64,000 nt of DNA, taken from NCBI RefSeq assembly GCF_044324875.1, contig NZ_CP172185.1. One strand, 5' to 3'. A program made the position numbers and the translations under genes. Of this stretch, positions 371-64,000 are shown in pieces; position 1 is the stretch's first letter, and every line of letters starts with the position of its first letter. Source of the DNA: Escherichia coli (lineage in GTDB: Bacteria; Pseudomonadota; Gammaproteobacteria; Enterobacterales; Enterobacteriaceae). The notes beneath the pieces are model-generated. The model was not told where the DNA came from. It did no database searches and worked only from the letters and a program-made list of their open reading frames with translations.

Positions 371-781
371 GTTGTTTGTTTTCCCTTGAAGTCCTTAACG
401 ACAAATATCGTTATAAAAAAATGCCAAGCGACACGAGACTAATTACCTGGGCATGTTGAAACAATTCCTTAAGGCCAAATCTGTGGACTAACGCACAAAA
501 TTATATGCTGTGAGGATAATCTACCGCCGAGGCAAAACGAGTTCGAGATTACCCGATTGGTGCGGTCTTGGCGAGCGGTTTTACATGATTTTTTATAAGA
601 AAAAGTGATACAGAAAGTTAATAAACGGGATTGGTCAATTAAAGTACGATTGAGTGAAACGCATGCAATCCATTCATTTACTTAGAGAATGATTTTTGCG
701 CGCGATGGATGAAAGCACGGTGCGCATCATCAGGATTATCCTCACTATAAAAATAACCCTGATGATGTTAATTACTGTGAG

Positions 782-1533: not shown

Positions 1534-2520
1534 TTACGCGGTAGTCGCTAAACGAAGCTTCAACAGCGCGCTCTGCAAGGCATTCCAGTCAGCTTCGCTG
1601 CTGGAAATCAGCTCAATACGACTGTCCGGTGGCGCAACGTTTTGCGTTTCAATGTGCAGGTCATCGCCCTGACGGTTGATTCGCACCAGCCCTTCGGGAA
1701 TACGCATCACGCCTTTGACGCGTTCCACCGGTGCAAGTCGCGCCCATTCCAGAATGCCAATGGTGTCGAATACCGTATCAGCGTCGAATATCCAGCCACA
1801 GGCCTGATGCCCTTGTCCGCTGTTCAGACTGCGACGCCAGCGTTGATGCTCTGGCAGGCTTAACGCTGCTAACCCTTTTTTCACGACATGCTGATGAGAA
1901 TGCGCGGCGCTGGCGGGCAACTCGGCTAAATTGCGACGCGGCAAATCCAGAAGATGACCGTCAACTTTCCCATGCTCACTGTGAATTAATTGCCGATCGC
2001 CACCATTTTGCTGCCACCAGCGCTGTAGCGCTTGCTCACTTTCGGGCGTCGCACGGTCGGATTTATTGGCGACAATAATGTCTGCGGCAGCCAGCTGGTC
2101 ACGGAAGTTTTCATTGCTGGCGCTTTTTTCGTCCAGCAGCAGGCGTGGATCGAGAATGCACAACGTGGCGCGTAGATCTATCCACGGTTCATAGACTGGT
2201 GCGGTTAAGAGATCTAGGATCTGTTTCGGATGCCCCAGTCCGGTCGGCTCTATCAACAAGCGGTCTGGTTTTCCCTGACGCAGTAAGGTATTCAATCCTA
2301 CCTGCATGGGTAAACCATTAACGCAGCACATGCAGCCGCCGGGGATCTCTTTCAACAATGCGCCGCTATCGGCGAGCAAAGCACCATCAATTCCGACTTC
2401 CCCAAATTCATTAACCAGTACCGCCCATTTTTCGTTGGGATCTTTATGGGCTAACAGATGAAGAATCGACGTGGTTTTCCCGCTGCCGAGAAAACCGGTG
2501 ATGAGGTTGGTCCTGGTCAC
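1534..2520 (-). CDS. yeiR: COG0523-family zinc-binding GTPase
   Basis: 328 aa, GTG start, P-loop GFLGSGKTT near N-terminus, CxCC motif. Confidence 0.88.
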   Translation of the reverse strand: MTRTNLITGFLGSGKTTSILHLLAHKDPNEKWAVLVNEFGEVGIDGALLADSGALLKEIPGGCMCCVNGLPMQVGLNTLLRQGKPDRLLIEPTGLGHPKQILDLLTAPVYEPWIDLRATLCILDPRLLLDEKSASNENFRDQLAAADIIVANKSDRATPESEQALQRWWQQNGGDRQLIHSEHGKVDGHLLDLPRRNLAELPASAAHSHQHVVKKGLAALSLPEHQRWRRSLNSGQGHQACGWIFDADTVFDTIGILEWARLAPVERVKGVMRIPEGLVRINRQGDDLHIETQNVAPPDSRIELISSSEADWNALQSALLKLRLATTA

Positions 2521-2637
2521 AACGGCTCCGCAATACTCTTAAAAGTTAACTGAGCGTTAATCCTGGCTAAAAACGGCAGAAAAGAGAAGGGGAGAGCGGA
2601 CGAAGGCGAGCTTCATCCGCTTTAACCGCAGAAATCG

Positions 2638-4104
2638 TTAAATTTTGAGGGTGTTTAATAGCGCCTGATGCGCGCCGAATTGTGCGATTTGTTGCCAGGC
2701 TTGTTCGATGGTCTGCACAAAATGCGGGTTATCTGGCAGATCATCACCGAAAACTTCACGCAGGGAAAGCAGGGCGGTGACGCGTTGTTCACTGCTGCTG
2801 CCCGCAACAAGTTCGCGAATTTTATCGCTAAGCGGATCGCGAACATCAATGGCATTTCCGGCATCATCAACGCCGCTGACGTAACGCATCCAGCCTGCAA
2901 CGCCTAATGCCAGCATCGACCAGTCCGTTTCGCGCCCCAGATGTATGCGAATACCTGCCAGCATGCGTTGCGGTAATTTCTGGCTACCATCCATTGCGAT
3001 TTGCCAGGTCTTATGTTTCAGCGCCGGATTAGCAAAACGTGCAATTAACTTATCCGCATATTGTGTTAAATCGACATCTTTAATTCGCAGTGTTGGCGCT
3101 TGCTCATCCAGCATTAATGTTCTGGCGGCATGGCGAAATGCGCGATCCTGCATGCAATCACTGATATGGGCGAATCCTGAGAGGTAACCCAGATAAGCGA
3201 GAAAAGAGTGGCTGCCATTAAGCATACGCAGTTTCATCTCTTCCCATGGCAGGACATCATTCACCATTTGTACACCTGCGACTTCCCAGGCAGGACGCCC
3301 AGCGACGAAGTTATCTTCCACCACCCACTGGATAAACGGTTCGCAGCTAATCGCGCAGGGATCATTCACCCCCAGATGCTGGCTGATTTCCGCTAGTGAT
3401 TCGTCGGTTGCAGCCGGAACAATGCGGTCGACCATAGTTCCCGGAAAACTGACGTGTTCTTTTATCCACCCGGCGAGTTCTGGCGAACGTTTTTCTGCCA
3501 TTCCCAGCACCGCGTTTTTCACCACATGGCCATTGTCGGGAATATTGTCGCAGGAGAGCACGGTAAACGGTGTAAGGCCGCGCTCACGGCGGCGTTTCAG
3601 TGCTTCGACGAGAATTCCCGGTGCGGAGTGAGGTTCTTCAGGATTTTGAAGATCGTGAATAATCCGCGGATTGCTGGTGTCGAGTGCACCGGTGGCTGGG
3701 TCAATACAATAGCCTTTTTCGGTAATCGTCAGGGAAACAATTGCCACCTGTGGCTCGCAAAATTTCTCAATAATTGCCGCTAAGGAATCCAGTTTTGCAT
3801 TCAGGCATTCGTGAACGGCACCGACAATTATCGCCTGATTGCCGTCCGCACCTTTCTCCAGCACGGTATATAAATGGTTCTGTGCGCGGAGCTGGCTCAT
3901 CAGTTGATCGCCGCTGAACAAGCTGATCTCACAGATTCCCCAGTCGCCGCCCTGGGCATTCAGCACACGATCGGTCAGTAACGCCTGATGTGCGCGGTGA
4001 AAGGCTCCGAAGCCAAAATGAACGATACGTGATTGCAACTGCTGGCGATCGTAGCGTGGAGCGTGTACATGATGCGGGAGCGTAGCGGAGGCGATTGTAT
4101 TCAT
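2638..4104 (-). CDS. yeiQ: Mannitol dehydrogenase-family oxidoreductase
   Basis: Track ORF 491 aa; start moved to MNTIASA (488 aa); long-chain mannitol DH-like sequence. Confidence 0.8.
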   Translation of the reverse strand: MNTIASATLPHHVHAPRYDRQQLQSRIVHFGFGAFHRAHQALLTDRVLNAQGGDWGICEISLFSGDQLMSQLRAQNHLYTVLEKGADGNQAIIVGAVHECLNAKLDSLAAIIEKFCEPQVAIVSLTITEKGYCIDPATGALDTSNPRIIHDLQNPEEPHSAPGILVEALKRRRERGLTPFTVLSCDNIPDNGHVVKNAVLGMAEKRSPELAGWIKEHVSFPGTMVDRIVPAATDESLAEISQHLGVNDPCAISCEPFIQWVVEDNFVAGRPAWEVAGVQMVNDVLPWEEMKLRMLNGSHSFLAYLGYLSGFAHISDCMQDRAFRHAARTLMLDEQAPTLRIKDVDLTQYADKLIARFANPALKHKTWQIAMDGSQKLPQRMLAGIRIHLGRETDWSMLALGVAGWMRYVSGVDDAGNAIDVRDPLSDKIRELVAGSSSEQRVTALLSLREVFGDDLPDNPHFVQTIEQAWQQIAQFGAHQALLNTLKI

Positions 4105-11995: not shown

Positions 11996-12921
11996 AAATT
12001 TCCCCTGAATTATTACAAATTTCCCCGGAAGTGCAGGACGCTTTAAAAAACAAAAAACCGGTTGTGGCGCTGGAATCGACCATTATTTCTCACGGGATGC
12101 CGTTCCCACAAAATGCCCAGACCGCAATTGAAGTTGAAGAAACTATTCGTAAACAGGGCGCTGTACCTGCCACTATCGCCATTATTGGCGGCGTGATGAA
12201 AGTGGGTTTAAGCAAAGAAGAAATTGAATTGCTGGGTCGTGAAGGGCATAACGTGACCAAAGTTAGTCGTCGCGATTTACCTTTTGTTGTTGCCGCCGGA
12301 AAAAATGGCGCAACTACCGTTGCTTCAACGATGATTATTGCGGCGCTTGCCGGAATTAAAGTATTTGCCACTGGGGGAATTGGTGGTGTGCATCGCGGGG
12401 CGGAACATACCTTCGATATTTCTGCCGATTTGCAAGAACTGGCGCACACCAATGTCACCGTCGTTTGTGCCGGGGCGAAATCTATTCTCGATTTAGGCTT
12501 AACTACCGAATATTTAGAAACTTTCGGTGTACCGCTAATTGGCTATCAGACCAAAGCGCTGCCTGCGTTTTTCTGCCGCACCAGCCCGTTTGAAGTCAGT
12601 ATTCGCCTTGATAGTGCCACGGAAATCGCTCGTGCAATGGCGGTGAAATGGCAAAGCGGTCTGAACGGTGGCCTGGTGGTGGCGAATCCGATCCCGGAAC
12701 AGTTTGCGATGCCGGAGGAATCTATCAATGCAGCCATAGATCAAGCCGTCGCCGAAGCCGAAGAGCAGGGCGTTATTGGTAAAGAAAGTACGCCATTCCT
12801 GCTGGCGCGCGTTGCTGAGCTGACCGGCGGTGACAGCCTGAAATCCAACATCCAGCTGGTGTTCAACAACGCCATTCTGGCGAGCGAAATTGCCAAAGAA
12901 TATCAGCGTCTCGCGGGTTAA
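11983..12921 (+). CDS. psuG: Pseudouridine-5'-phosphate glycosidase
   Basis: 312 aa MSELKISPELLQISPEVQDALKNKKPVVALESTIISHGMP...; overlaps psuK by 13 nt. Confidence 0.88.
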   Translation: MSELKISPELLQISPEVQDALKNKKPVVALESTIISHGMPFPQNAQTAIEVEETIRKQGAVPATIAIIGGVMKVGLSKEEIELLGREGHNVTKVSRRDLPFVVAAGKNGATTVASTMIIAALAGIKVFATGGIGGVHRGAEHTFDISADLQELAHTNVTVVCAGAKSILDLGLTTEYLETFGVPLIGYQTKALPAFFCRTSPFEVSIRLDSATEIARAMAVKWQSGLNGGLVVANPIPEQFAMPEESINAAIDQAVAEAEEQGVIGKESTPFLLARVAELTGGDSLKSNIQLVFNNAILASEIAKEYQRLAG

Positions 12922-13014
12922 TTTCTGACGGGCAGAAAGCCGTCGCCCGTACTCATCAAGCATACCAAAACCTGGCGCTGACGCCGGGTTTACTGGCATG
13001 AAGGGAAAATCATT

Positions 13015-14265
13015 ATGGATATAATGAGAAGTGTTGTGGGGATGGTGGTGTTACTGGCAATAGCATTTCTGTTGTCAGTGAATAAAAAGGGCATCAGTTT
13101 GCGCACGGTTGGAGCCGCACTGCTGCTGCAAATCGCTATTGGTGGCATCATGCTCTACTTCCCACCGGGAAAATGGGCAGTAGAACAGGCGGCATTAGGC
13201 GTTCATAAAGTGATGTCTTACAGTGATGCCGGTAGCGCCTTTATTTTTGGTTCATTGGTCGGGCCGAAAATGGATGTCCTGTTTGATGGCGCGGGCTTTA
13301 TCTTCGCCTTTCGCGTACTCCCGGCGATTATCTTCGTCACTGCGCTCATCAGCCTGCTGTACTACATTGGCGTGATGGGACTGCTGATTCGCATTCTTGG
13401 CAGCATTTTCCAGAAAGCTCTCAACATCAGCAAAATCGAATCTTTTGTTGCGGTTACCACTATTTTCCTCGGGCAAAATGAGATCCCGGCGATCGTTAAA
13501 CCGTTTATCGATCGCATGAATCGCAACGAGTTGTTTACCGCAATTTGTAGCGGGATGGCGTCCATTGCTGGTTCGATGATGATTGGTTATGCCGGAATGG
13601 GCGTACCAATTGACTACCTGTTAGCGGCATCGCTGATGGCGATCCCTGGCGGGATTTTGTTTGCACGTATTCTTAGCCCGGCAACCGAGCCTTCGCAGGT
13701 CACATTTGAAAATCTGTCGTTCAGCGAAACACCGCCAAAAAGCTTTATCGAAGCAGCGGCGAGCGGTGCGATGACCGGGTTGAAAATCGCCGCTGGTGTG
13801 GCGACGGTGGTAATGGCGTTTGTCGCAATTATTGCGCTGATTAATGGCATTATCGGCGGAATTGGCGGCTGGTTTGGTTTTACCAATGCTTCTCTGGAAA
13901 GTATTTTTGGCTATGTGCTGGCACCGCTGGCGTGGATCATGGGTGTGGACTGGAGTGATGCCAATCTTGCGGGTAGCCTGATTGGGCAGAAACTGGCGAT
14001 TAACGAATTCGTCGCTTACCTGAGTTTCTCCCCATACCTGCAAACGGGCGGCACGCTGGAAGTGAAAACCATTGCGATTATCTCCTTTGCGCTTTGTGGT
14101 TTTGCTAACTTTGGTTCTATCGGTGTTGTCGTTGGCGCATTTTCGGCTATTTCGCCTAAACGCGCACCGGAAATCGCCCTGCTTGGTTTACGGGCGCTGG
14201 CAGCAGCAACGCTTTCCAACCTGATGAGCGCGACCATTGCCGGGTTCTTTATTGGTTTAGCTTGA
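13015..14265 (+). CDS. psuT: NupC-family nucleoside transporter
   Basis: 416 aa multi-TM; close paralog of nupX in this window. Confidence 0.88.
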   Translation: MDIMRSVVGMVVLLAIAFLLSVNKKGISLRTVGAALLLQIAIGGIMLYFPPGKWAVEQAALGVHKVMSYSDAGSAFIFGSLVGPKMDVLFDGAGFIFAFRVLPAIIFVTALISLLYYIGVMGLLIRILGSIFQKALNISKIESFVAVTTIFLGQNEIPAIVKPFIDRMNRNELFTAICSGMASIAGSMMIGYAGMGVPIDYLLAASLMAIPGGILFARILSPATEPSQVTFENLSFSETPPKSFIEAAASGAMTGLKIAAGVATVVMAFVAIIALINGIIGGIGGWFGFTNASLESIFGYVLAPLAWIMGVDWSDANLAGSLIGQKLAINEFVAYLSFSPYLQTGGTLEVKTIAIISFALCGFANFGSIGVVVGAFSAISPKRAPEIALLGLRALAAATLSNLMSATIAGFFIGLA

Positions 14266-29932: not shown

Positions 29933-30931
29933 ATGAATAAGAAGGTGTTAACCCTGTCTGCTGTGATGGCCAGCATGTTATTCGGTGCCGCTGCACACGC
30001 TGCTGATACTCGCATTGGTGTAACAATCTATAAGTACGACGATAACTTTATGTCTGTAGTGCGCAAGGCTATTGAGCAAGATGCGAAAGCCGCGCCAGAT
30101 GTTCAGCTGCTGATGAATGATTCTCAGAATGACCAGTCCAAGCAGAACGATCAGATCGACGTATTGCTGGCGAAAGGGGTGAAGGCACTGGCAATCAACC
30201 TGGTTGACCCGGCAGCTGCGGGTACGGTGATTGAGAAAGCGCGTGGGCAAAATGTGCCGGTGGTTTTCTTCAACAAAGAACCGTCTCGTAAGGCGCTGGA
30301 TAGCTACGACAAAGCCTACTACGTTGGCACTGACTCCAAAGAGTCCGGCATTATTCAGGGCGATTTGATTGCTAAACACTGGGCGGCGAATCAGGGTTGG
30401 GATCTGAACAAAGACGGTCAGATTCAGTTCGTACTGCTGAAAGGTGAGCCGGGCCATCCGGATGCAGAAGCACGTACCACTTACGTGATTAAAGAATTAA
30501 ACGACAAAGGCATCAAAACTGAACAGTTACAGTTAGATACCGCTATGTGGGATACCGCTCAGGCGAAAGATAAGATGGACGCCTGGCTGTCTGGCCCGAA
30601 CGCCAACAAAATCGAAGTGGTTATCGCCAACAACGATGCGATGGCAATGGGCGCGGTAGAAGCACTGAAAGCACACAACAAGTCCAGCATTCCGGTGTTT
30701 GGCGTCGATGCGCTGCCAGAAGCGCTGGCGCTGGTGAAATCCGGTGCACTGGCGGGCACCGTACTGAACGATGCTAACAACCAGGCGAAAGCGACCTTTG
30801 ATTTGGCGAAAAACCTGGCCGATGGCAAAGGTGCGGCTGATGGCACCAACTGGAAAATCGACAACAAAGTGGTCCGCGTACCTTATGTTGGCGTAGATAA
30901 AGACAACCTGGCTGAATTCAGCAAGAAATAA
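29933..30931 (+). CDS. mglB: Periplasmic galactose/glucose-binding protein
   Basis: 332 aa with signal peptide. Confidence 0.93.
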
Positions 30932-54785: not shown

Positions 54786-54873
54786 AGGTATAACCTGCGA
54801 GCATGACGCCACCAATTCCGCCTAACGCCATAAACAGGAACAGGGCGATGACCCCAATTTTAGCTATGCGCAT
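54766..54873 (-). CDS. yohO: Small membrane protein YohO (35 aa)
   Basis: Minus-strand [38 protein letters not shown]; 3' end overlaps yehW 3' end antisense; below ORF-track cutoff. Confidence 0.65.
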
Positions 54874-54932
54874 AATGCACTCCTTATGTTAACGAAAGGA
54901 TTGTACAGTAAAGCGCATTTGTTAACGAATCA

Positions 54933-55616
54933 TTAAATGCCGAGTGGGAAAATATCATGGCCTTGTTCCTGCCAACTGGTAAGTTGCTGCTGTTGGGCGG
55001 AGGTTCGATTTTCACCGCACCACACCAGCAATGTACGGCCTTCGAACAGTTCAGGGCGTAGTTGATTGAGCGAGTGGGCGAGGACATCAATGCGCCATCC
55101 TTGTTGACTGGCAATCCAGCCCTCCAGCCATAGACGGGTGGTATCGTGAATATTCCAGCCAACCACCAGCGCATCTTTACCCTGTTTTTTACGTGCCGAA
55201 GCCAGGCAAATGGCGATGTAGTTGATCAGTACGCCGTCAAGGATCGCCAGCAGCGCCTGGAGGGTCGGTTGTTGGCACTGAAGTCGTCGGCGCAGAGGAA
55301 TAAACAGATGCGTGGTGAGTGTCTGGGCAGGGTAATCCTGACCGCGCTCTTTGATCCACGTTCGCAGGCTATGCAGATTGCCGCTTTGCAGGTAAGTCAG
55401 TAATGTTTCTTGCTGATCGCGCCAGCCGTTCTGCACATCAACATTTTCATTACTGAGCAGCATTTTAACTTTGCTGACCTGCACGCCGTTGTCGATCCAG
55501 CGTTTGATCTCGCGGATCCGGTCAATATCGGCATCGTTGAACAGCCGATGGCCGCCGTCTGTCCGTTGCGGTTTCAGCAATCCGTAACGCCTCTGCCACG
55601 CGCGTAACGTGACAGG
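54933..55616 (-). pseudogene. mlrA: MerR-family regulator MlrA (YehV) lacking its 5' end, interrupted by prophage insertion
   Basis: Reading frame matches MlrA from ...PVTLRAWQRRYGLLKPQRTDGGHRLF to C-terminus FPLGI; upstream in frame the expected N-terminus (MALYTIGEVALLCDIN) is absent and a stop lies at 55650-55652; no ATG start. Confidence 0.8.
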
Positions 55617-55654
55617 GATTAAGGGTAAACTAACTGATTTTACAAGTTTTTATT

Positions 55655-56941
55655 TTACCCCACTTTCTTATGGGGCATACATGGGACACTTTCAGATAGT
55701 CTTTTGTTAAGGAGTTCTATCTGTTCGTGATTGTTGTCTTTCATCCATGCTCCGTAAACATTGAATACCATTTGTGCGTTTGTGTGGCCCATCTGGCTTG
55801 CGATAAAACTAGGATTAGCTCCAGCGGCAAGTGACCAGCATGCATAAGTATGCCTGGATTGGTACGATTTTCTGTGTCTCAGACCTGCGCGTTTTAAGAT
55901 ACTTGTCCATGACTCCCTGATGGAGTCAACCTTATAGTGCGGTCCGGAAAACTGCCGCTGTTTTATTACCTGAGGACTAAAAACAAAAGTGCATTTATGC
56001 ACAGTACTTCTCCCATATTCCCTCTGCTTTACCTCTACAGAATGTTGCTTTCCAAGCATGGTCATTTCCGCCTGACTTTTAAGAGCATCAATAGCTGGTT
56101 GAACCAGATGAATTGTCCTTCCGGTGCCAGCATCGGTTTTTGGTGGAGTGAATTCGCCAAGTTTTGTATAATTCCTACGGATGGTTATAGTCCTTGCTTT
56201 AAGGTCTATATCTTCCCATGCCAGCGATACCAACTCCCCGTGACGAATACCCGTGTATACAGCGAGAATCCACAGGTTTTTTGTTTGTTGATGACGGCAA
56301 GCCTCAATAAAACGAATAAATTCGTCACGGGTGAGAGGATCTGGTTTTACCTTGGACTTTTTTAAGGGAGCCAGACCGTTAAATGGGTTTCCTGAGGTAT
56401 AACCATTATCTGTTGCAAATTGAAACATTCCAGCTATGGTTGTCATATAGTAGTTTACCGTGACCACTGAGCGCCCTTTTATGGAAGAAGTCTTTCCATT
56501 AGAAAGCTTTTGGTAACCGGTCAACAAATCTCTCCTTACGAAAAGTAAATCCTCTTTTGTTATGGATGAAACCAGTTTTTTTTCACCTAACATTGGTAAC
56601 ATGTTTTTAATTACTGACTGGTAACGGTTAAGTGCATTCGCACAAATCTCAATTTTCTTAAGGTCCAACCATTTTTCCGAAAGTGCCTTAACGGTTATCT
56701 CTCTTTTTCCCAGACCAAAGTGTTTCAGGTTAGGGGAATTAGGGAACTGCGCGGCGTAGTCGAAACTCCCCATTCTGATTGCAAAACAAACGGAAGTGCG
56801 AAGTTCACCTGCGATCTTCCGGTTTTTGGCGGTGTCAGGAACACCGAGGTTTTCTCTGACACGTTTGCCATTATAGTGAAACCATATACGGAGTGATCCT
56901 CCATGGTTTTCAACGCCTGTCGGGTATGATACGTTACTCAT
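55655..56941 (-). CDS. int: Phage tyrosine integrase
   Basis: 428 aa; conserved boxes TGIRHGELVSL and HRKSYQSRHTYACW ... VYGAW; SD gggagg; 3' end faces the att junction. Confidence 0.88.
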   Translation of the reverse strand: MSNVSYPTGVENHGGSLRIWFHYNGKRVRENLGVPDTAKNRKIAGELRTSVCFAIRMGSFDYAAQFPNSPNLKHFGLGKREITVKALSEKWLDLKKIEICANALNRYQSVIKNMLPMLGEKKLVSSITKEDLLFVRRDLLTGYQKLSNGKTSSIKGRSVVTVNYYMTTIAGMFQFATDNGYTSGNPFNGLAPLKKSKVKPDPLTRDEFIRFIEACRHQQTKNLWILAVYTGIRHGELVSLAWEDIDLKARTITIRRNYTKLGEFTPPKTDAGTGRTIHLVQPAIDALKSQAEMTMLGKQHSVEVKQREYGRSTVHKCTFVFSPQVIKQRQFSGPHYKVDSIRESWTSILKRAGLRHRKSYQSRHTYACWSLAAGANPSFIASQMGHTNAQMVFNVYGAWMKDNNHEQIELLNKRLSESVPCMPHKKVG

Positions 56942-56974
56942 TAAACCTCCCAGACGTCCAGGAGCATTAACAGG

Positions 56975-57229
56975 TTAACCGGAACTTGCATTTTTGGCAC
57001 CTGGTTGTTTCTGGTTTTCGATCCATCGCATAATTTCTTCGATGTTGTACAGGCATTCACTGTAGTGCCCCGGATCACCTTCTACAGCGTAATGGCGGTA
57101 TTCTTTTCCCTGCATCCATGACTTTCTTCTTGCCCGCTCAATGGTGCCAGGCTTTAGCCCTGTTGATGCAATGAGGACTCTCTCCGTACACCATTTGCTG
57201 GGGGTTATCTGATAGATGATTGTCTGCAT
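56975..57229 (-). CDS. Putative excisionase / small DNA-binding protein
   Basis: 84 aa immediately upstream of int in the same operon, basic, SD gagg; function inferred from position only. Confidence 0.45.
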   Translation of the reverse strand: MQTIIYQITPSKWCTERVLIASTGLKPGTIERARRKSWMQGKEYRHYAVEGDPGHYSECLYNIEEIMRWIENQKQPGAKNASSG

Positions 57230-57247
57230 GCCAACCTCATAAAATTT

Positions 57248-57382
57248 TCATCCACGGCAGTGGCACCACACATCAAACATTCGCTTCACAACTTCACGAC
57301 AGTAGAAGCCGTCAACATCTCGCGTCAGGTCATAGCGATTGCCATAACGCTGGCGCACCCATAGTTCAAATGCTTTATTCAT
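57248..57382 (-). CDS. Candidate small Cys/His-containing protein (45 aa)
   Basis: MNKAFELWVRQRYGNRYDLTRDVDGFYCREVVKRMFDVWCHCRG; starts 3 nt after the stop of the upstream gene; not in ORF track. Confidence 0.3.
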   Translation of the reverse strand: MNKAFELWVRQRYGNRYDLTRDVDGFYCREVVKRMFDVWCHCRG

Positions 57383-57385
57383 TCT

Positions 57386-57628
57386 TTACTTCCTTTTCAT
57401 GGCCCGTAATTTTTTCAGATGAGCTTCCTGCTCTGTTTCTGCCAGAATTTGTCGGTATTCCTGGTGATCGAGCCGTTCAAACAGTTCATTAAAATCGTTT
57501 ATTTTTACCGACTGTGTTCTCCCATCCATTCTTCTGTACAACACAGTGTTGTTTATGCAGCGAATAATTTTTACCGGGTAGCCAGCACTATCGGTGTATA
57601 TCTGACCACGTTGAATCAGAGCGAACAT
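57386..57628 (-). CDS. Hypothetical phage protein (80 aa)
   Basis: Track ORF, same orientation as the operon. Confidence 0.5.
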   Translation of the reverse strand: MFALIQRGQIYTDSAGYPVKIIRCINNTVLYRRMDGRTQSVKINDFNELFERLDHQEYRQILAETEQEAHLKKLRAMKRK

Positions 57629-57715
57629 TCCTTTATCCCCAGCGGAAAAGCGAATACAGAATAAATGCCACCGCTATTGCAACTCCTACTGCGGTGAATG
57701 CTTCAGGCCAATTCA

Positions 57716-58345
57716 TCATTTCACCTCCACGCCGATCCCGGCAATAACACAATCCCGTTTGATAGCTTCTTTCACCCAGCGTTTATAGGTTTCCGGATGG
57801 AATTTTGCGTTTTTTCCGGTACCGCTCCAGAATGCCTTTGATGTGATATCGGGCAGGGTGATGGTCAGGCCTTTCTTCTTGCTGCCTTCAGAACTTTTGC
57901 AAAAAGTTAATGCGTCGCGTAGTTCTTTAACACACGCATAGTTTTCTGCTTTCTCTGGGTCGCCGGTACGGTGTTCAGCTTCTTGTCTGCACCATTTGAT
58001 GACTTTCTCTGCGGCTGCGTGGAGACGCTGACGTTGCCAGTCGTATGTGTCGACCAGCCCATATGCGTGATTCTTTGCTTTGCTTAATTCAGCGACGAGG
58101 CATTCGGAATCAATCAAATTATTTTCCGCAGCGGACAGCGCTTGTTTAAGTCGCTCGATTTCTTGAGCCATGTAGTAGCCGGTTTTACTCCAGGTATCGA
58201 CATCATCGTCACTCATATCCAGTTCCATCGACGCCATCAGAACGGCGTCGTGATAGTTCTGGCTACCGCAGGTGATTGCAACGACGTAGGAGTCACTATT
58301 TTCTCGTTTATGGATAAGTACAACTGGGTTTTTGATCTTGCTCAT
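57716..58345 (-). CDS. Hypothetical phage protein (209 aa)
   Basis: Track ORF; no recognisable motif. Confidence 0.55.
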   Translation of the reverse strand: MSKIKNPVVLIHKRENSDSYVVAITCGSQNYHDAVLMASMELDMSDDDVDTWSKTGYYMAQEIERLKQALSAAENNLIDSECLVAELSKAKNHAYGLVDTYDWQRQRLHAAAEKVIKWCRQEAEHRTGDPEKAENYACVKELRDALTFCKSSEGSKKKGLTITLPDITSKAFWSGTGKNAKFHPETYKRWVKEAIKRDCVIAGIGVEVK

Positions 58346-58353
58346 TCCGCACC

Positions 58354-58449
58354 TCAGTAATTCATTAAAAATTTATATTCAATCAGCGCACCGAAAACGA
58401 CGGACGCCAGCAGCAGACCAAACAGCATGGACAGGAGGAATGACTTCAT
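58354..58449 (-). CDS. Candidate small hydrophobic protein (31 aa)
   Basis: MKSFLLSMLFGLLLASVVFGALIEYKFLMNY; ATGA start/stop overlap with the upstream 74-aa gene; not in ORF track. Confidence 0.3.
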   Translation of the reverse strand: MKSFLLSMLFGLLLASVVFGALIEYKFLMNY

Positions 58450-58670
58450 CGCTTTGCCTCCCGCTGTACGATTTTGTAGGCGCGCAGGATGTCGCGTGTT
58501 TTTCCTGACAACGATGACTTAACCCAGAAAAAGCCGCTGCGGTTTTCATAGATCCCCTGTACATTAAACAGCACCGCATCAACAACGCGGTTATGCTTTT
58601 GCAATGTCAGGCAGGAACTGGTGATCACGATGTTCGCTACGGCGCCATAGTCCTTGTATTGGATTTTCAT
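58446..58670 (-). CDS. Hypothetical phage protein (74 aa)
   Basis: Track ORF; start abuts the stop of the 112-aa gene. Confidence 0.5.
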   Translation of the reverse strand: MKIQYKDYGAVANIVITSSCLTLQKHNRVVDAVLFNVQGIYENRSGFFWVKSSLSGKTRDILRAYKIVQREAKR

Positions 58671-59009
58671 TTACATGTTCCCCATAACGGTATCGCTCAT
58701 GTCGTTAACCATGCTCTGCCAGATTTCTTTGCCGCTTTGCGTCAGCTCGTTTCCACGAACGCATTTGCTTAACAGCTGAATACCAACGGCTTCCCATTGG
58801 GGGTAATTTTCTTTGATAGCCTTCAGAGCATAACCATCGATTAAATCCCTGATACCTTTAACCCCACCGATGATGTTTACTCGTATGGATTGCCCATTGA
58901 CATTAATCATGAAATGATCTCCGTTGGTGGCGGATATGTGGTTGTGCAGTGCAGCCGCATACTGATTTGCCAGCGCATTGAGGCGGAAATTTTGTGTAAT
59001 GAGTGGCAT
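58671..59009 (-). CDS. Hypothetical phage protein (112 aa)
   Basis: Track ORF; TAATG overlap with the upstream ORF6N gene. Confidence 0.5.
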   Translation of the reverse strand: MPLITQNFRLNALANQYAAALHNHISATNGDHFMINVNGQSIRVNIIGGVKGIRDLIDGYALKAIKENYPQWEAVGIQLLSKCVRGNELTQSGKEIWQSMVNDMSDTVMGNM

Positions 59010-59755
59010 TATTTACCCTCCCAACCAATCACCTGAAACAGCCCCATTTTCGGGTGATACCAGCGGGTACCGCGTGGCTCTGCCTCTGACATCATCTGAT
59101 GAAATGCTTTCATGAACGGCTCAAGCTCCACGATAGCCCGGCGAGAAAGAAGACCATCTGGCGTCATAAATTCGTGCGTATCGGTTGGGATGCTGTAGGC
59201 ATTGACCAGATTGCGGCACTTGGCATCAGTCATTCCGCTTTTGGCGACCACCTGGCGATAACCGACATATCCGGCGCGCATATTTCCGCGTTTGATGTTC
59301 TCCACAGCTTTGGTGACCGTTTCGATCTTCTCTTCAACATGACTCAGGCGCTTCTGCTGGCGAACGGCATCGGCGGCCATTGCAGCGATCATCTCCATTT
59401 CCGTCAGCGGCGCGTGAGTTCGGAAATAGCTGTTAACCAGTTCGCGCTGAACCTGCCATGCAAGAGTATCGTTAAAAGGCTTCGTCAACATCAGGTAACC
59501 AGACTCGAAAAGAATGATCCCTTTGGCAGTTCGCGCGGCAAAGGCATCAGAAAGTGACTCCGTACGTATTACGTCCGCAGTCATTTCAAGAAAATCCACC
59601 CCTTCGATAAAGTGAGAACGGTTGCGGTTAAACGCAGCACGGGCGGTACCTTCCGGGCGCTGGTGGACGTCATCAATCATTGCAAATGTCACAACACGCT
59701 GACCGCGATATTCGATTACCGGAAACTGTTTGTTGTTGATGGTTACAGTATTCAT
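59009..59755 (-). CDS. ORF6N/KilA-N domain protein (antirepressor-like)
   Basis: Start at MNTVTINNKQFPVIEYRGQRVVTF..IDDVHQRPEGTA (SD ggag 7 nt upstream); N-terminal pattern typical of ORF6N/KilA-N DNA-binding domain. Confidence 0.6.
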   Translation of the reverse strand: MNTVTINNKQFPVIEYRGQRVVTFAMIDDVHQRPEGTARAAFNRNRSHFIEGVDFLEMTADVIRTESLSDAFAARTAKGIILFESGYLMLTKPFNDTLAWQVQRELVNSYFRTHAPLTEMEMIAAMAADAVRQQKRLSHVEEKIETVTKAVENIKRGNMRAGYVGYRQVVAKSGMTDAKCRNLVNAYSIPTDTHEFMTPDGLLSRRAIVELEPFMKAFHQMMSEAEPRGTRWYHPKMGLFQVIGWEGK

Positions 59756-59798
59756 TTTTATCTCCAGACAGCCCGGCGTGTAATACCGGGCATATGTA

Positions 59799-60626
59799 TT
59801 ACTTAACCTGAATAAATGGTGTGTTGGCACCGCTGGTCATGTATTGCGGCAGTGTACCGTTCCACTTGTTGATGGCTTCCAGCTCCATAACGTTTGGGTT
59901 CTGGCGCAGAGCTTCACCGCGTAAACGAATAGCATCGGCTTCGGCCTGGGCTTTTGTGCGAATCGCATCTGCCTGTCCGGCAGCTTCCGCGCGCAACATG
60001 TTGGCTTCCGCTTCGCGCTGTTTTACTTCCTGCTCGCGTTGCAGGGTTTTCTGGTTGGCCGTGACTTTGGCATTAATGCTGTCGATAACAGTAGGCGGGT
60101 ACTCCGGCTTACCCACATATGAGAGGCTCATTACCTGAATACCGATGGGCGTCATTTCTTCCTGAATGTCTTTAAGAGCTGCATCCAGCAGCTCAGACTT
60201 GCCGCCGTCGATAAATTTGTCGGTGGTCATTTTGCTGGCCAGTCGGTTGAGTGCGTCGGCTATCTTCTGGCGCAGGTCGGTGTCGGTAATGTCGTCCACG
60301 CCTTTGCGGTAGGTCTGAAAGACTGTGGTAACTTTGGATGGATCAACTTTGTAGGCCACGCCGATGTGATAGCCGATGGTTGTACCGTCACTCATCTGGA
60401 AACTGAATGGATCATCGTAGGTCTTCATCTGCTTAAAGGTCGGGAAGATGTAAACCTCAGTGTTCCATCCCGTCCAGTAGCGCCCAACACCGACCACTTC
60501 ACCGACGCCTTTATCGTCGCCCAGTTTGTTTACTTTGATGCCCACATTACCAGGCTCAACGCGATCGCAACCGACAAGGCCAATGGTCGGCAGAACAATG
60601 GCTAAAGCAAAAAGTAATTTTTTCAT
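59799..60626 (-). CDS. SPFH/band-7 (prohibitin/HflKC-like) lipoprotein
   Basis: 275 aa; signal peptide with lipobox LVGC; SPFH-type core and C-terminal coiled-coil QREQEVKQREAEANMLRAEAAGQADAIRTKAQAEADAIR. Confidence 0.7.
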   Translation of the reverse strand: MKKLLFALAIVLPTIGLVGCDRVEPGNVGIKVNKLGDDKGVGEVVGVGRYWTGWNTEVYIFPTFKQMKTYDDPFSFQMSDGTTIGYHIGVAYKVDPSKVTTVFQTYRKGVDDITDTDLRQKIADALNRLASKMTTDKFIDGGKSELLDAALKDIQEEMTPIGIQVMSLSYVGKPEYPPTVIDSINAKVTANQKTLQREQEVKQREAEANMLRAEAAGQADAIRTKAQAEADAIRLRGEALRQNPNVMELEAINKWNGTLPQYMTSGANTPFIQVK

Positions 60627-60811
60627 CTTTTATCCTTAGAAAAAGAAAGACCCTTATAAATGGCATAAATGCAGGGCGGGGTCAGACACGCCAGAGCAAA
60701 GCCAGAAATCACTGCTATCGTATCCTTCATGGATATAAGGAACGGAACGAGTAATCCGTAAATGCATGCGATAATTGCCAGTAAAATTACTATTGTGAAA
60801 TACAGTCTCAT
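60623..60811 (-). CDS. Small two-TM membrane protein coupled to the SPFH gene
   Basis: 62 aa MRLYFTIVILLAIIACIYGLLVPFLISMKDTIAVISGFALACL...; 4-nt start/stop overlap with the SPFH gene. Confidence 0.55.
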   Translation of the reverse strand: MRLYFTIVILLAIIACIYGLLVPFLISMKDTIAVISGFALACLTPPCIYAIYKGLSFSKDKR

Positions 60812-60987
60812 TGGTCTGTGGTATCCCGATATTTTTAACCGACTGACAGCGCAATAAAGAGAATAATGATTTCTGTTAGTGTCAGCACTGTGGCAAGGAT
60901 TAAAATCAGTTTTACTCTGTTTAATTCACGGTTGCTTTTCATATAAACGGTTAGTAAAAAACGGAAGAATTATTTTCTTCTTAATAT

Positions 60988-61569
60988 TTAATGTGTCACT
61001 GGCGCTTCTGGCATACCATGAGTATTCAGGTCGTGAATCATTTCATCCAGAAGGAGTTCAAGCCCTTCGCGCCCCATAGCAGAGAGAATGAAACCATTAT
61101 CAGGATCTGCGATGAGCATTTTTTGATAGAGAAACAGAACTCGCCCCATGCCTTCAGTTTCGCCATATTTTTCAATAAATCCCCATTCGACATGGTTTTG
61201 CAGGGCAATGCGAAGTGGTCCTGGGTATATACTTATGCAACCATGTTTCCCCTTGTAAATAACTGCGCGATCTGTCGTCCCGTTATCGTTAGGGATATCA
61301 ATAGTGCCGTTCTTGTCTTCCTCTTCACTGATAAACTTCATCACATACAGCCAGCGCCACTGAGCAACCTTCAGATCGACTGAAAATCTTCCCAGCAATC
61401 CGGCATCATCAGCTTCGGCAAGACATTGCATGATTCTTAAACCGTGCCAGTATGGATTATCGAATTCGCCATCATTAAGCCGCTGTACGGCCTGAATATA
61501 ATTAATGGTTGTATTACCAATTTTTATGCCATGTGGCGTTACTTCTGGTCGGAACTCTGAATGATTCAT
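60988..61569 (-). CDS. Hypothetical phage protein (193 aa from MNHSEF; track ORF extends to 61626)
   Basis: ATGA overlap with the upstream 67-aa gene if it starts at 61569. Confidence 0.5.
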   Translation of the reverse strand: MNHSEFRPEVTPHGIKIGNTTINYIQAVQRLNDGEFDNPYWHGLRIMQCLAEADDAGLLGRFSVDLKVAQWRWLYVMKFISEEEDKNGTIDIPNDNGTTDRAVIYKGKHGCISIYPGPLRIALQNHVEWGFIEKYGETEGMGRVLFLYQKMLIADPDNGFILSAMGREGLELLLDEMIHDLNTHGMPEAPVTH

Positions 61570-61769
61570 AATATTTGCTCCTTTGCTGGTGGAATAATCG
61601 TGTAGCCAGCTCTTTTTGCCATCCACAGAAATGTATCCATGCAGCCAACGAATTCATTATCCAGCAGATGTTTTGAGTAAATTACTTCACCATTTTCAAT
61701 GGTTAGCAACACTCTTACTTTTTTATGTGTTATGTTTTGTTGTTTTTCTTCCATTGACTTATCTCCCAT
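61566..61769 (-). CDS. Hypothetical phage protein (67 aa)
   Basis: Track ORF; alternative start MEEKQQ at 61754. Confidence 0.45.
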   Translation of the reverse strand: MGDKSMEEKQQNITHKKVRVLLTIENGEVIYSKHLLDNEFVGCMDTFLWMAKRAGYTIIPPAKEQIL

Positions 61770-61950
61770 ATGCTTTGCGCAAATACAGGTTGGCTATATG
61801 AAGATAAGAATCTCCATGTTGTGCAATGAGGCAGGCAGTTTTATACGATGCCTTATGTTTCAGGAAAGTCATAACATAATCTCCTGCGAATAAAGGTTGC
61901 AACAATCCCCGGCGATAAAACCGTAATAAACATTCAGGGAATATTTATTG

Positions 61951-62316
61951 TTATTGCGCTAATTCTTTTTCGGCAGCAGATTTTGCATATTCACATGCAA
62001 AATTCAGAATTTCGCTGCCAAGTGTTTTTGTTTCGTGATTACTGGACATATGTAATACCTGTGTTGCATGCAATAAATGATAAACATTTACCGCAAATGA
62101 GTCCGGCTCCAGACAAATGCCTTCATAATCATCTTGTTGTGAGGTTGTTTCTGTCATTGCTCCTGAAGTGCATGCGAGCCTGTTTTTGACAATTCTCTTT
62201 CCTCTAATCACTATATCGGCAACATCTATTGCCTTTACAACCTCCGGGAGAAGTTCCGGGTTTGTATAATCAAAGTCATCAACATGGAGAACAGTTATGT
62301 TTTCGAACTTTTTCAT
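61951..62316 (-). CDS. Hypothetical phage protein (121 aa)
   Basis: Track ORF with SD gaggaag upstream. Confidence 0.5.
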   Translation of the reverse strand: MKKFENITVLHVDDFDYTNPELLPEVVKAIDVADIVIRGKRIVKNRLACTSGAMTETTSQQDDYEGICLEPDSFAVNVYHLLHATQVLHMSSNHETKTLGSEILNFACEYAKSAAEKELAQ

Positions 62317-62444
62317 GGCTTCCTCAGCTGACTTATATGTTCTGCTATATAGCGAGTCTCAGAAGTGTTTTCATATTGAGACTGTTTCCGCAATGATTGA
62401 TAAAAATGTTCGCATGTACCTTGAGGGGCGAAGCGGCGATTATG

Positions 62445-62903
62445 TCACCATTGGTATTGGTTCTTCCGTAGAAGAGCTTCGCGAGATAAGGAGCAAACTT
62501 GTTGAGATGCGTCATGGTGTTGCTGCTCCTCACTTTTTGGTTGCTCCGGAGGAGTAACCTCGCCAGTTAACAGCCACATCGGATCACAGCCAAGAACATT
62601 AGCCAGAGGGATAATCTGGCTTGCCAGAGGCTCCCTCTTGCCACTTTCCCACTGGATGATAATTTCTTCATCGAGATTGAGCAGCCTGGCGAGTTCGGCG
62701 GTTGTTAAGCCGCAGGCTTCGCGTTGGGTGTCAATAGAGCGATATTTTTTGTTTCCAGAAGGTAACAGAACACGTTTTATCTGTTGGATTTTTTCTATTG
62801 CAACTTCAATGAGTATGTTGCGGTTTCTTTCTGATGCAGACTCCATGCTTTCATGAAGTAGTGATTCTGCTTGTTCGATAAGAATCAGTTGTAAAGAAGA
62901 CAT
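62445..62903 (-). CDS. HTH (XRE/Cro-type) domain protein immediately downstream of cI
   Basis: 152 aa; central segment LTTAELARLLNLDEEIIIQWESGKREPLASQIIPLANVLGCDPMWLLTG is a typical XRE helix-turn-helix; SD gagg. Confidence 0.6.
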   Translation of the reverse strand: MSSLQLILIEQAESLLHESMESASERNRNILIEVAIEKIQQIKRVLLPSGNKKYRSIDTQREACGLTTAELARLLNLDEEIIIQWESGKREPLASQIIPLANVLGCDPMWLLTGEVTPPEQPKSEEQQHHDASQQVCSLSREALLRKNQYQW

Positions 62904-62911
62904 AAGAAAAC

Positions 62912-62946
62912 CTCGTAACCAACATTTCGAAATCTAGGTTACGAGT
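62912..62946. promoter_or_regulatory. Palindrome between cI and the downstream HTH gene; candidate operator or terminator
   Basis: ctcgtaacc-N17-ggttacgag (9-bp arms); spacer contains gaaatctaggtt, which recurs in the cI-cro intergenic region. Confidence 0.4.
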
Positions 62947-62988
62947 GAGTAATGTAGGTGTCAAGTGTAATTGATAATTTTTTGTTGA

Positions 62989-63648
62989 TTAAATTTGCAT
63001 ACGCATCTCAACGACAACACCAAGAATTTCACAATCGCCATTGATAGGGATCAGTGGATAGCGTGGGTTTAGTGGTTTTAAGAAACATTGTCCTGCGTCT
63101 TCAATGTACTGTTTGAGGGTTGCTTCACCGGAATTTTTGAGTCTAGCGACAACATATTTTCCTGAAAAAACTTCTTTGTCAGGGTTTACAAGAATGTTCA
63201 TGCCTTCAAAGATTGAGAACTCCCCATTCTGTGACGTCATTGAGTCACCTTTTACCTCCAGCCAGAATCCGTTATCTCCTGCATATATATCGCTACCGAT
63301 CCAATCTTCTGGATAAGGTATGTAATCTTCGCAGTTCCAAGGGCCGGCGCTCACCCATGTTAATTTTGGGTATCTGTAACGCGTTGGAGAAGCTGGTTTG
63401 GGGTTTCGAACGTTTTGAATACTATCTGTAGGTGAAGGTTCGCTACCATCAAGGAGCCATTTAGGTGAGCATTTTAATGCATCTGCGATCCTGAATAGGT
63501 TTGACGATCTTGTGTCTTGTGAGTCTCCTAACTCTATTTTGCTGATTGTTACACGTGAGACACCCGTCAATTTTGCCAGGTCATCTTGTGACATGCCTAG
63601 CTGAACTCTACGCATTAACAATCTCTGTCCAAAACTATCGTGTTCCAT
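62989..63648 (-). CDS. cI: CI-type phage repressor (HTH plus LexA-like S24 peptidase domain)
   Basis: 219 aa; N-terminal HTH MSQDDLAKLTGVSRVTISKIELG; C-terminal domain with GDSM serine motif and downstream lysine. Confidence 0.8.
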   Translation of the reverse strand: MEHDSFGQRLLMRRVQLGMSQDDLAKLTGVSRVTISKIELGDSQDTRSSNLFRIADALKCSPKWLLDGSEPSPTDSIQNVRNPKPASPTRYRYPKLTWVSAGPWNCEDYIPYPEDWIGSDIYAGDNGFWLEVKGDSMTSQNGEFSIFEGMNILVNPDKEVFSGKYVVARLKNSGEATLKQYIEDAGQCFLKPLNPRYPLIPINGDCEILGVVVEMRMQI

Positions 63649-63661
63649 CTTTTCTCTCCGT

Positions 63662-63746
63662 TGTCGAAATGATTTTTTCGAAACAAATATATCAAAAAAT
63701 ATTGAAATCTAGGTTTCGCAAAACTAAGATTGTTCGAAACAAACGT
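63662..63746. promoter_or_regulatory. Divergent cI/cro promoter-operator region with repeated TTCGAAAC-type sites
   Basis: tgtcgaaat, ttttcgaaacaaa, gaaatctaggtttcgcaaaac, tgttcgaaacaaacg between the divergent starts. Confidence 0.5.
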
Positions 63747-63758
63747 GTCGAGGTCGAT

Positions 63759-63968
63759 ATGGATTTGTATGAAATTCTAAAAAACATATTTGGTTCGAAT
63801 GTTGAGATCGGTCGCCATTTTCCCCGAAAGGGAAGGGCTAGAACTGGACAGGCTGTAGGAAAGTGGAAAAAACAAGGGGTACCGGAGGATGTAGCGATTC
63901 TTTGCCATCTGGATCCCGCAATTCCTTATCAGCATCCGCCTCTCACGAACGGTAGTAATGGCGTATGA
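63759..63968 (+). CDS. cro: Cro-like small DNA-binding regulator
   Basis: 69 aa MDLYEILKNIFGSNVEIGRHFPRKGRARTGQAVGKWKK...; divergent from cI, SD gagg; start chosen at internal ATG of a longer track ORF. Confidence 0.55.
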   Translation: MDLYEILKNIFGSNVEIGRHFPRKGRARTGQAVGKWKKQGVPEDVAILCHLDPAIPYQHPPLTNGSNGV

Positions 63969-64000
63969 AATCTCTCCGGAGGGCTGTATGTCCCAGAGTT

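Follow-up and report, generated by a model that had tools for sequence, protein, structure and literature searches.

The gene mlrA (yehV) of the Escherichia coli genome studied here, which codes for a MerR-type activator of csgD, lies next to a phage integrase gene, and this raises the question of whether a prophage has inactivated the activator and, if so, whether the inactivation is permanent. We addressed this with a computational analysis of a stretch of 64,000 nucleotides from contig NZ_CP172185.1 (the window), of which mlrA and the phage genes occupy the last part. The chromosomal backbone around them (fruA...cirA...lysP...mglA...mdtQ...bglX, osmF-yehYXW, yohO) is that of an ordinary E. 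coli. The nearest complete RefSeq genomes were approximately 98.5-99.0% identical, and the lineage had no close relative among them.

We found the mlrA reading frame on the minus strand to be open from 55652 down to the stop codon at 54933-54935, both in the list of open reading frames and by direct translation. From P17 (codon 55616-55614) to I243, the encoded protein was identical at 227 of 227 residues to the intact 243-aa MlrA of E. coli STN0717-11 (E = 2e-172), in agreement with the original prediction that the frame is intact to the C-terminus, and the remnant thus comprises the 3′ 93% of the gene (residues 17 to 243). The same prediction had the frame diverge from the expected N-terminus upstream of this point and then meet a stop codon, and this is what the translation showed: the phage-derived codons for K-L-V-K-S-V-S-L-P-L-I replace MALYTIGEVALLCDIN and are preceded in frame by a TAA at 55650-55652. 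Read across the junction, the window gives ...K*KLVKSVSLPLIPVTLRAWQRRYGLLKPQ..., where the intact MlrA begins with MALYTIGEVALLCDINPVTL.... At the DNA level, the identity with uninterrupted mlrA was ungapped to 55617 and reached 55622 with a 1-nt gap across TTAA. The integrase gene adjoins the remnant, as had been claimed, and is cooriented with it on the minus strand; the distance of 40 bp given earlier needed correction, because 37 nt separate the end of the int open reading frame from the last mlrA-homologous base. The coordinates of all features are collected in Table 1.

Table 1. Features of the mlrA remnant, the junction, and the visible part of the prophage (positions are those of the 64,000-nt window)
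Feature	Position	Strand	Remarks
mlrA (yehV) 3′ remnant	54933..55617	minus	codons 17-243 plus stop codon; 227/227 identity to intact MlrA
21-bp att core CCCTGTCACGTTACGCGCGTG (mlrA sense)	55597..55617	minus	int-proximal copy; mlrA codons 16 (3rd base) to 23
Phage-derived arm	55618..55654	minus	between int stop codon and core; carries the mlrA-frame TAA 55650-55652 and ATC 55619-55617
Two ATG(C/T)CCCAT copies (AGTGTCCCATGTATGCCCCAT)	55670..55690	minus	tandem; overlap the last int codons; candidate arm-type Int-binding sites
Tyrosine integrase, 428 aa, full length	55655..56941	minus	PHROG 1 integrase, E = 4.5e-83
Excisionase xis, 84 aa	56975..57229	minus	PHROG 539, E = 1.6e-37; annotated xisR in Ch1 and O157
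Early-left region	57230..62988	minus	DUF4222 protein, small unknown ORFs, anti-repressor-like, SPFH lipoprotein, CII-like
ORF6N/anti-repressor-like protein, 273 aa	59009..59830	minus	early-left region
SPFH-domain lipoprotein, 275 aa	59799..60626	minus	PHROG 200; early-left region
CII-like HTH protein	62445..62903	minus	early-left region
CI/LexA-type repressor, 219 aa	62989..63648	minus	PHROG 4 transcriptional repressor, E = 1.6e-55

The crossover site was sought by comparison with an uninterrupted mlrA, as had been proposed. Since the 5′ end of mlrA lies outside the window, we defined the att core from two other genomes with the same int-side junction, Ch1 and O157:H7 strain 2-6-2. The sequence common to the int-side junctions, the far junctions of these two genomes, and the intact attB was the 21-bp CCCTGTCACGTTACGCGCGTG. 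It occurs once in the window and equals the annotated attL (665..685) of phage JLK-2012 (GenBank JQ347801.1); a full-text literature search with its letters returned no match. Two tandem copies of ATG(C/T)CCCAT overlap the end of int, and the far arm of the prophage in O157:H7 2-6-2 has three in the same orientation (~13690-13722 of the locus compared). These repeats may be arm-type Int-binding sites.

We searched the window for the first 45 nt of mlrA, and for all 16-mers of them, and did not find the 5′ fragment, which places the far junction outside the window. In both Ch1 and O157:H7 2-6-2, the second junction, at which the duplicated core is joined to the mlrA 5′ end and btsS, was present. 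In mlrA sense, the far junction of Ch1 reads ...ATGGCGCTTTACACAATTGGTGAAGTGGCGTTGCTTTGTGATATTAACCCTGTCACGTTACGCGCGTG up to the junction point and ACGCAACATTTTT... beyond it, the prophage being ~43 kb long, and that of O157:H7 2-6-2 is the same around the junction, with a prophage of ~54 kb. The frame at this point runs CGC GCG TGA and leaves a 22-codon mlrA 5′ stub, which PGAP records in both genomes as a 66-nt partial pseudogene labelled "hypothetical protein." The TGA that ends the stub follows the core directly, so that these relatives do not regain a hybrid gene, and the suggestion that the other junction might restore one fails there.

The junction itself is widespread. A 221-nt probe across it hit 457 of the 5,426 complete E. 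coli genomes when a match to 80% or more of the probe was required, and both O157:H7 strains and non-STEC animal isolates were among them. In a megablast search of the same genomes with positions 54800 to 55760, nearly all matched only to 55622 and approximately 8% matched the whole query. With 457 complete genomes sharing the junction, a chance resemblance is excluded, and an assembly chimera, which we also considered, was ruled out because these genomes are independent of one another. Elsewhere in the window, between positions 30001 and 54900, a short segment was repeated many times per genome (by megablast, at a median of 28 places in each), as would be expected of a dispersed repeat, of the REP/BIME type or another. 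The top syntenic matches to this part fell approximately 290 nt short of the query length.

Upstream of the remnant, the visible part of the prophage extends for approximately 8.4 kb, in the order int, xis, early genes, CII-like protein, and CI-like repressor up to position 64000, where the window ends within the immunity region and the prophage continues. The integrase is identical at 420 of 428 residues (98%) to the mlrA-adjacent Int of O157:H7 strain 2-6-2, and yehV is known to be used by both Stx1 and non-Stx lambdoid phages (PMC8309913, PMC3874044), so the statement that mlrA is an established integration site for lambdoid phages, Stx phages included, holds. By its integrase and its core junction, the prophage appears to belong to the mlrA/yehV-integrating lambdoid group with an Int of the Sp15/CP-933V/JLK-2012 type. 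Its early region is a mosaic similar to phiP27, ASU11, and Stx phages, and parts of the prophage match the Stx2e phage phiP27 at 95% identity. The best coverage was 65% among the 5,426 complete E. coli genomes for positions 55400 to 64000 and 46% among 50,697 phage records for positions 55623 to 64000. Two accessory genes of the early region, those for the ORF6N/anti-repressor-like protein and the SPFH lipoprotein, overlap each other (59009-60626).

Among the known systems, the Stx1a prophages of O157:H7 (Sp15/VT1-Sakai of strain Sakai and CP-933V of EDL933), as well as the mlrA prophage of O157:H7 strain 2-6-2, share with the window the host gene, the core, and the orientation, in which int adjoins the 3′ part of mlrA. 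The 2-6-2 prophage also carries xis and the DUF4222 gene in the same order, whereas the early region of the O157:H7 mlrA prophages beyond int-xis is a different mosaic. The first 2.1 kb (arm, int, and xis) of phage JLK-2012, from O55:H7 DEC5E, is 97.9% identical to the window, but the remainder is unlike the early region seen here, and the coverage is only 25%. Non-Stx lambdoid prophages or remnants in yehV (TW14359, TW14313, and Ch1) have the same junction, and Ch1, which was 100% identical over the 221-nt probe, is the closest junction relative. The syntenic RefSeq annotation of Ch1 lists yehW, yohO, mlrA, integrase, xisR, and a DUF4222 protein; its prophage has no annotated stx gene and shares 52% of the prophage part of the window.

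Whether such an element can still leave mlrA bears directly on the permanence of the disruption. One possibility, which we regard as unlikely although it deserves some weight, is that the window holds a defective remnant fixed in mlrA and unable to excise, so that the disruption would be permanent. Of 346 O157 strains, 96.5% carry an Stx1a or non-Stx phage at this site, and truncated or non-Stx remnants in yehV, among them a 20-kb non-Stx element, are common in stx1-negative O157 (PMC8309913). The orthologous int of Ch1 is frameshifted (fetched locus 12856-14143), as are several of its late phage genes, and that prophage is decaying. The element studied here, moreover, is visible for 8.4 kb only. 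Unlike in Ch1, however, int is full length in the window, as are xis and the gene for the CI-like repressor, and the core is intact. With Int, Xis, and the repressor all full length, excision competence of the window prophage is plausible.

To see what the insertion takes from the protein, we mapped the junction onto intact MlrA, in which Pfam places MerR_1 at residues 4 to 72, MlrA_helical at 81 to 155, and MlrA_C at 162 to 238. A single-sequence AlphaFold model had a poor mean pLDDT of 59.6, and only its N-terminal 60 residues (pLDDT of 70 to 88, with 85 to 88 over residues 1 to 20) were used, for the positions of helices 1 and 2. Helix 1 was assigned to residues 6 to 12 and helix 2, the recognition helix of the MerR family, to residues 17 to 25; the PDB homologues CarH, GlnR, TnrA, MerR, and MtaN align with MlrA from residue 1-6 on. 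The MerR_1 domain is therefore incomplete in the window, residues 4 to 16, including helix 1, being swapped for unrelated phage-derived codons, while MlrA_helical, MlrA_C, and the wing are fully encoded in the remnant. According to the model, helix 1 alone of the MerR-type HTH is deleted and the coding sequence for the recognition helix is kept. The original prediction had both the start codon and the N-terminal HTH removed; the loss of the start codon, and with it the promoter, stands, but the loss of the HTH has to be narrowed to its first helix. An in-frame start codon and an intact HTH upstream had been named as the findings that would speak against a disruption; neither a canonical in-frame start nor an intact helix 1 is present there. 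The comparisons of sequence thus confirmed that a lambda-like prophage severs mlrA from its promoter, its start codon, and its first 16 codons.

The remaining codons could matter if they were translated. The stretch from the TAA (55650-55652) to P17 contains no ATG, GTG, or TTG. The sole table-11 start in this interval is ATC 55619, and the 22 nt upstream of it (AAAATCAGTTAGTTTACCCTTA) contain no Shine-Dalgarno-like sequence. The first canonical start in the remnant is TTG 55580, which is L29 and lies 3′ of helix 2, with AGAGG 9 nt upstream. As no canonical start precedes L29, translation from any canonical start would yield a protein without the HTH.

A functional hybrid would have to begin at the ATC in the phage arm, and the resulting 228-aa MlrA would have to retain its control of csgD. 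It would include the recognition helix at 17 to 25, int is cooriented with the remnant, no terminator-like hairpin lies between them, and PGAP calls the remnants in Ch1 and O157:H7 2-6-2 "HTH-type transcriptional regulator MlrA," with no pseudogene flag. We nevertheless consider this extremely improbable. Initiation at ATC or ATT is very rare, the ATC here has no Shine-Dalgarno sequence upstream, and the codon in the phage arm that reads ATT in O157:H7 2-6-2 reads GTT in the window. Such a protein would also miss helix 1 and the start of MerR_1 (residues 4 to 16). Equivalent lysogens lose mlrA function and are complemented in trans (PMC3874044), and DNA binding by the distal fragments was deemed unlikely by the authors who studied them (PMC5931665).

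In RefSeq, the MlrA of Ch1 has 228 aa and starts from the ATC (fetched locus 12134-12820, corresponding to window positions 54933-55619), and that of O157:H7 2-6-2 has 233 aa and starts from the ATT (fetched locus 2414-3115, corresponding to 54933-55634). These "complete MlrA" calls might suggest that the hybrid gene is intact, but their starts lack a Shine-Dalgarno sequence. Because the ATC and ATT starts make the remnants look intact, screens for gene presence or absence miss the inactivation of mlrA.

A different matter is whether the remnant is transcribed from the prophage side. A consensus-only scan of positions 55400 to 57400 found neither a minus-strand sigma-70-like promoter nor a terminator-like hairpin between int and the remnant. 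With the two genes cooriented and 37 nt apart, the junction anatomy would be compatible with read-through. In published lysogens, run-off transcription can express the part of mlrA on the distal side of the prophage, and this part was upregulated 20- to 62-fold by qRT-PCR with SMX-TM, with csgD not being raised (PMC5931665). Read-through from int and the early-left region, especially under SOS conditions, could thus yield a truncated MlrA from TTG 55580 (L29) or ATG 55463 (M68), which would retain the helical and C-terminal domains and would modulate the csgD network via protein contacts, without DNA binding. Besides the short distance and the lack of a terminator-like site, the AGAGG ahead of the TTG and the undecayed state of the remnant, at 100% identity, agree with this. 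Recombinant truncated MlrA restored some Congo red affinity, but not biofilm, according to the account of Uhlich 2016 given in PMC5931665. Against this, expression of the remnant has no sign in the sequence, and the highly expressed distal fragment of strain PA20 did not raise csgD (PMC5931665). We judge such a role for a truncated product to be rather doubtful, and it would add to the main explanation, not replace it. A still bolder proposal, for which we see little likelihood, is that the undecayed remnant has been kept for use, with an HTH-less MlrA titrating partners in the c-di-GMP/csgD module and coupling induction to biofilm. If this were true and excision were reversible, the prophage would be a regulatory switch, not a simple knock-out.

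The explanation that we prefer, and in which we have high confidence, is that site-specific lambdoid integration at the mlrA core has left a remnant with no promoter, start codon, or helix 1, so that MlrA function would be lost in a way that excision could reverse. For this account, the junction anatomy and the core, the intactness of Int and Xis, and how often the junction occurs in E. coli were observed here, and the phenotype and the reversibility come from published equivalent insertions. The tyrosine integrase would have recombined a temperate lambdoid phage into the core at mlrA codons 16 to 23, and the promoter, the ribosome-binding site, the ATG, and the first 22 codons of mlrA would thereby have come to lie at the far end of the prophage, tens of kilobases past the window. 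A simple insertion predicts that the plus strand carries ...CACGCGCGTAACGTGACAGGGTTAATATCACAAAGCAACGCCAC... approximately 35 to 50 kb past position 64000, that is, the core, mlrA codons 15 to 1, and the mlrA-btsS intergenic region. Since the remnant lacks a promoter, a canonical start, and helix 1, no DNA-binding MlrA would be made, and MlrA-dependent csgD activation, curli, and the biofilm matrix would be lost for as long as the prophage stays. Precise excision by Int and Xis would rebuild an intact mlrA, with an attB reading ...GATATTAACCCTGTCACGTTACGCGCGTGGCAGAGG....

Published insertions agree with this course of events. [quoted passage not shown] Some non-O157 STEC have the insertion as well, and O103 and O113 strains with it regained curli and the ability to bind Congo red when given mlrA in trans (PMC3874044). 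In strain PA20, according to the summary of Uhlich 2016 in PMC5931665, excision of the Stx1 prophage restores the native mlrA and results in strong curli and biofilm formation, and cured cells are seldom recovered for an mlrA prophage (PMC5931665). The knock-out of the MerR-type csgD activator is most likely a polar and potentially reversible one, as judged by analogy with these strains.

This likeness invites a comparison with other split genes. Prophage-split regulator genes can serve as excision switches ("active lysogeny"), an example being the Listeria phage phi10403S in comK. Active lysogeny of the comK type likewise involves a split regulator gene that precise excision restores, as is the case for mlrA in strain PA20; it differs in that regulated, nonlytic excision has not been demonstrated for mlrA prophages.

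The arrangement described here is already known, best of all from E. coli O157:H7: the site, the core, the phenotype, and the question of the truncated fragment have all been published or annotated in databases. The presence of a prophage in mlrA/yehV is routinely used to type O157:H7 and other STEC, and it is an established cause of their curli-negative, weak-biofilm phenotype. By analogy, the source genome is predicted to be Congo red negative and low in csgD at low temperature, and the window flags a possibly inducible, perhaps toxin-converting lambdoid prophage.
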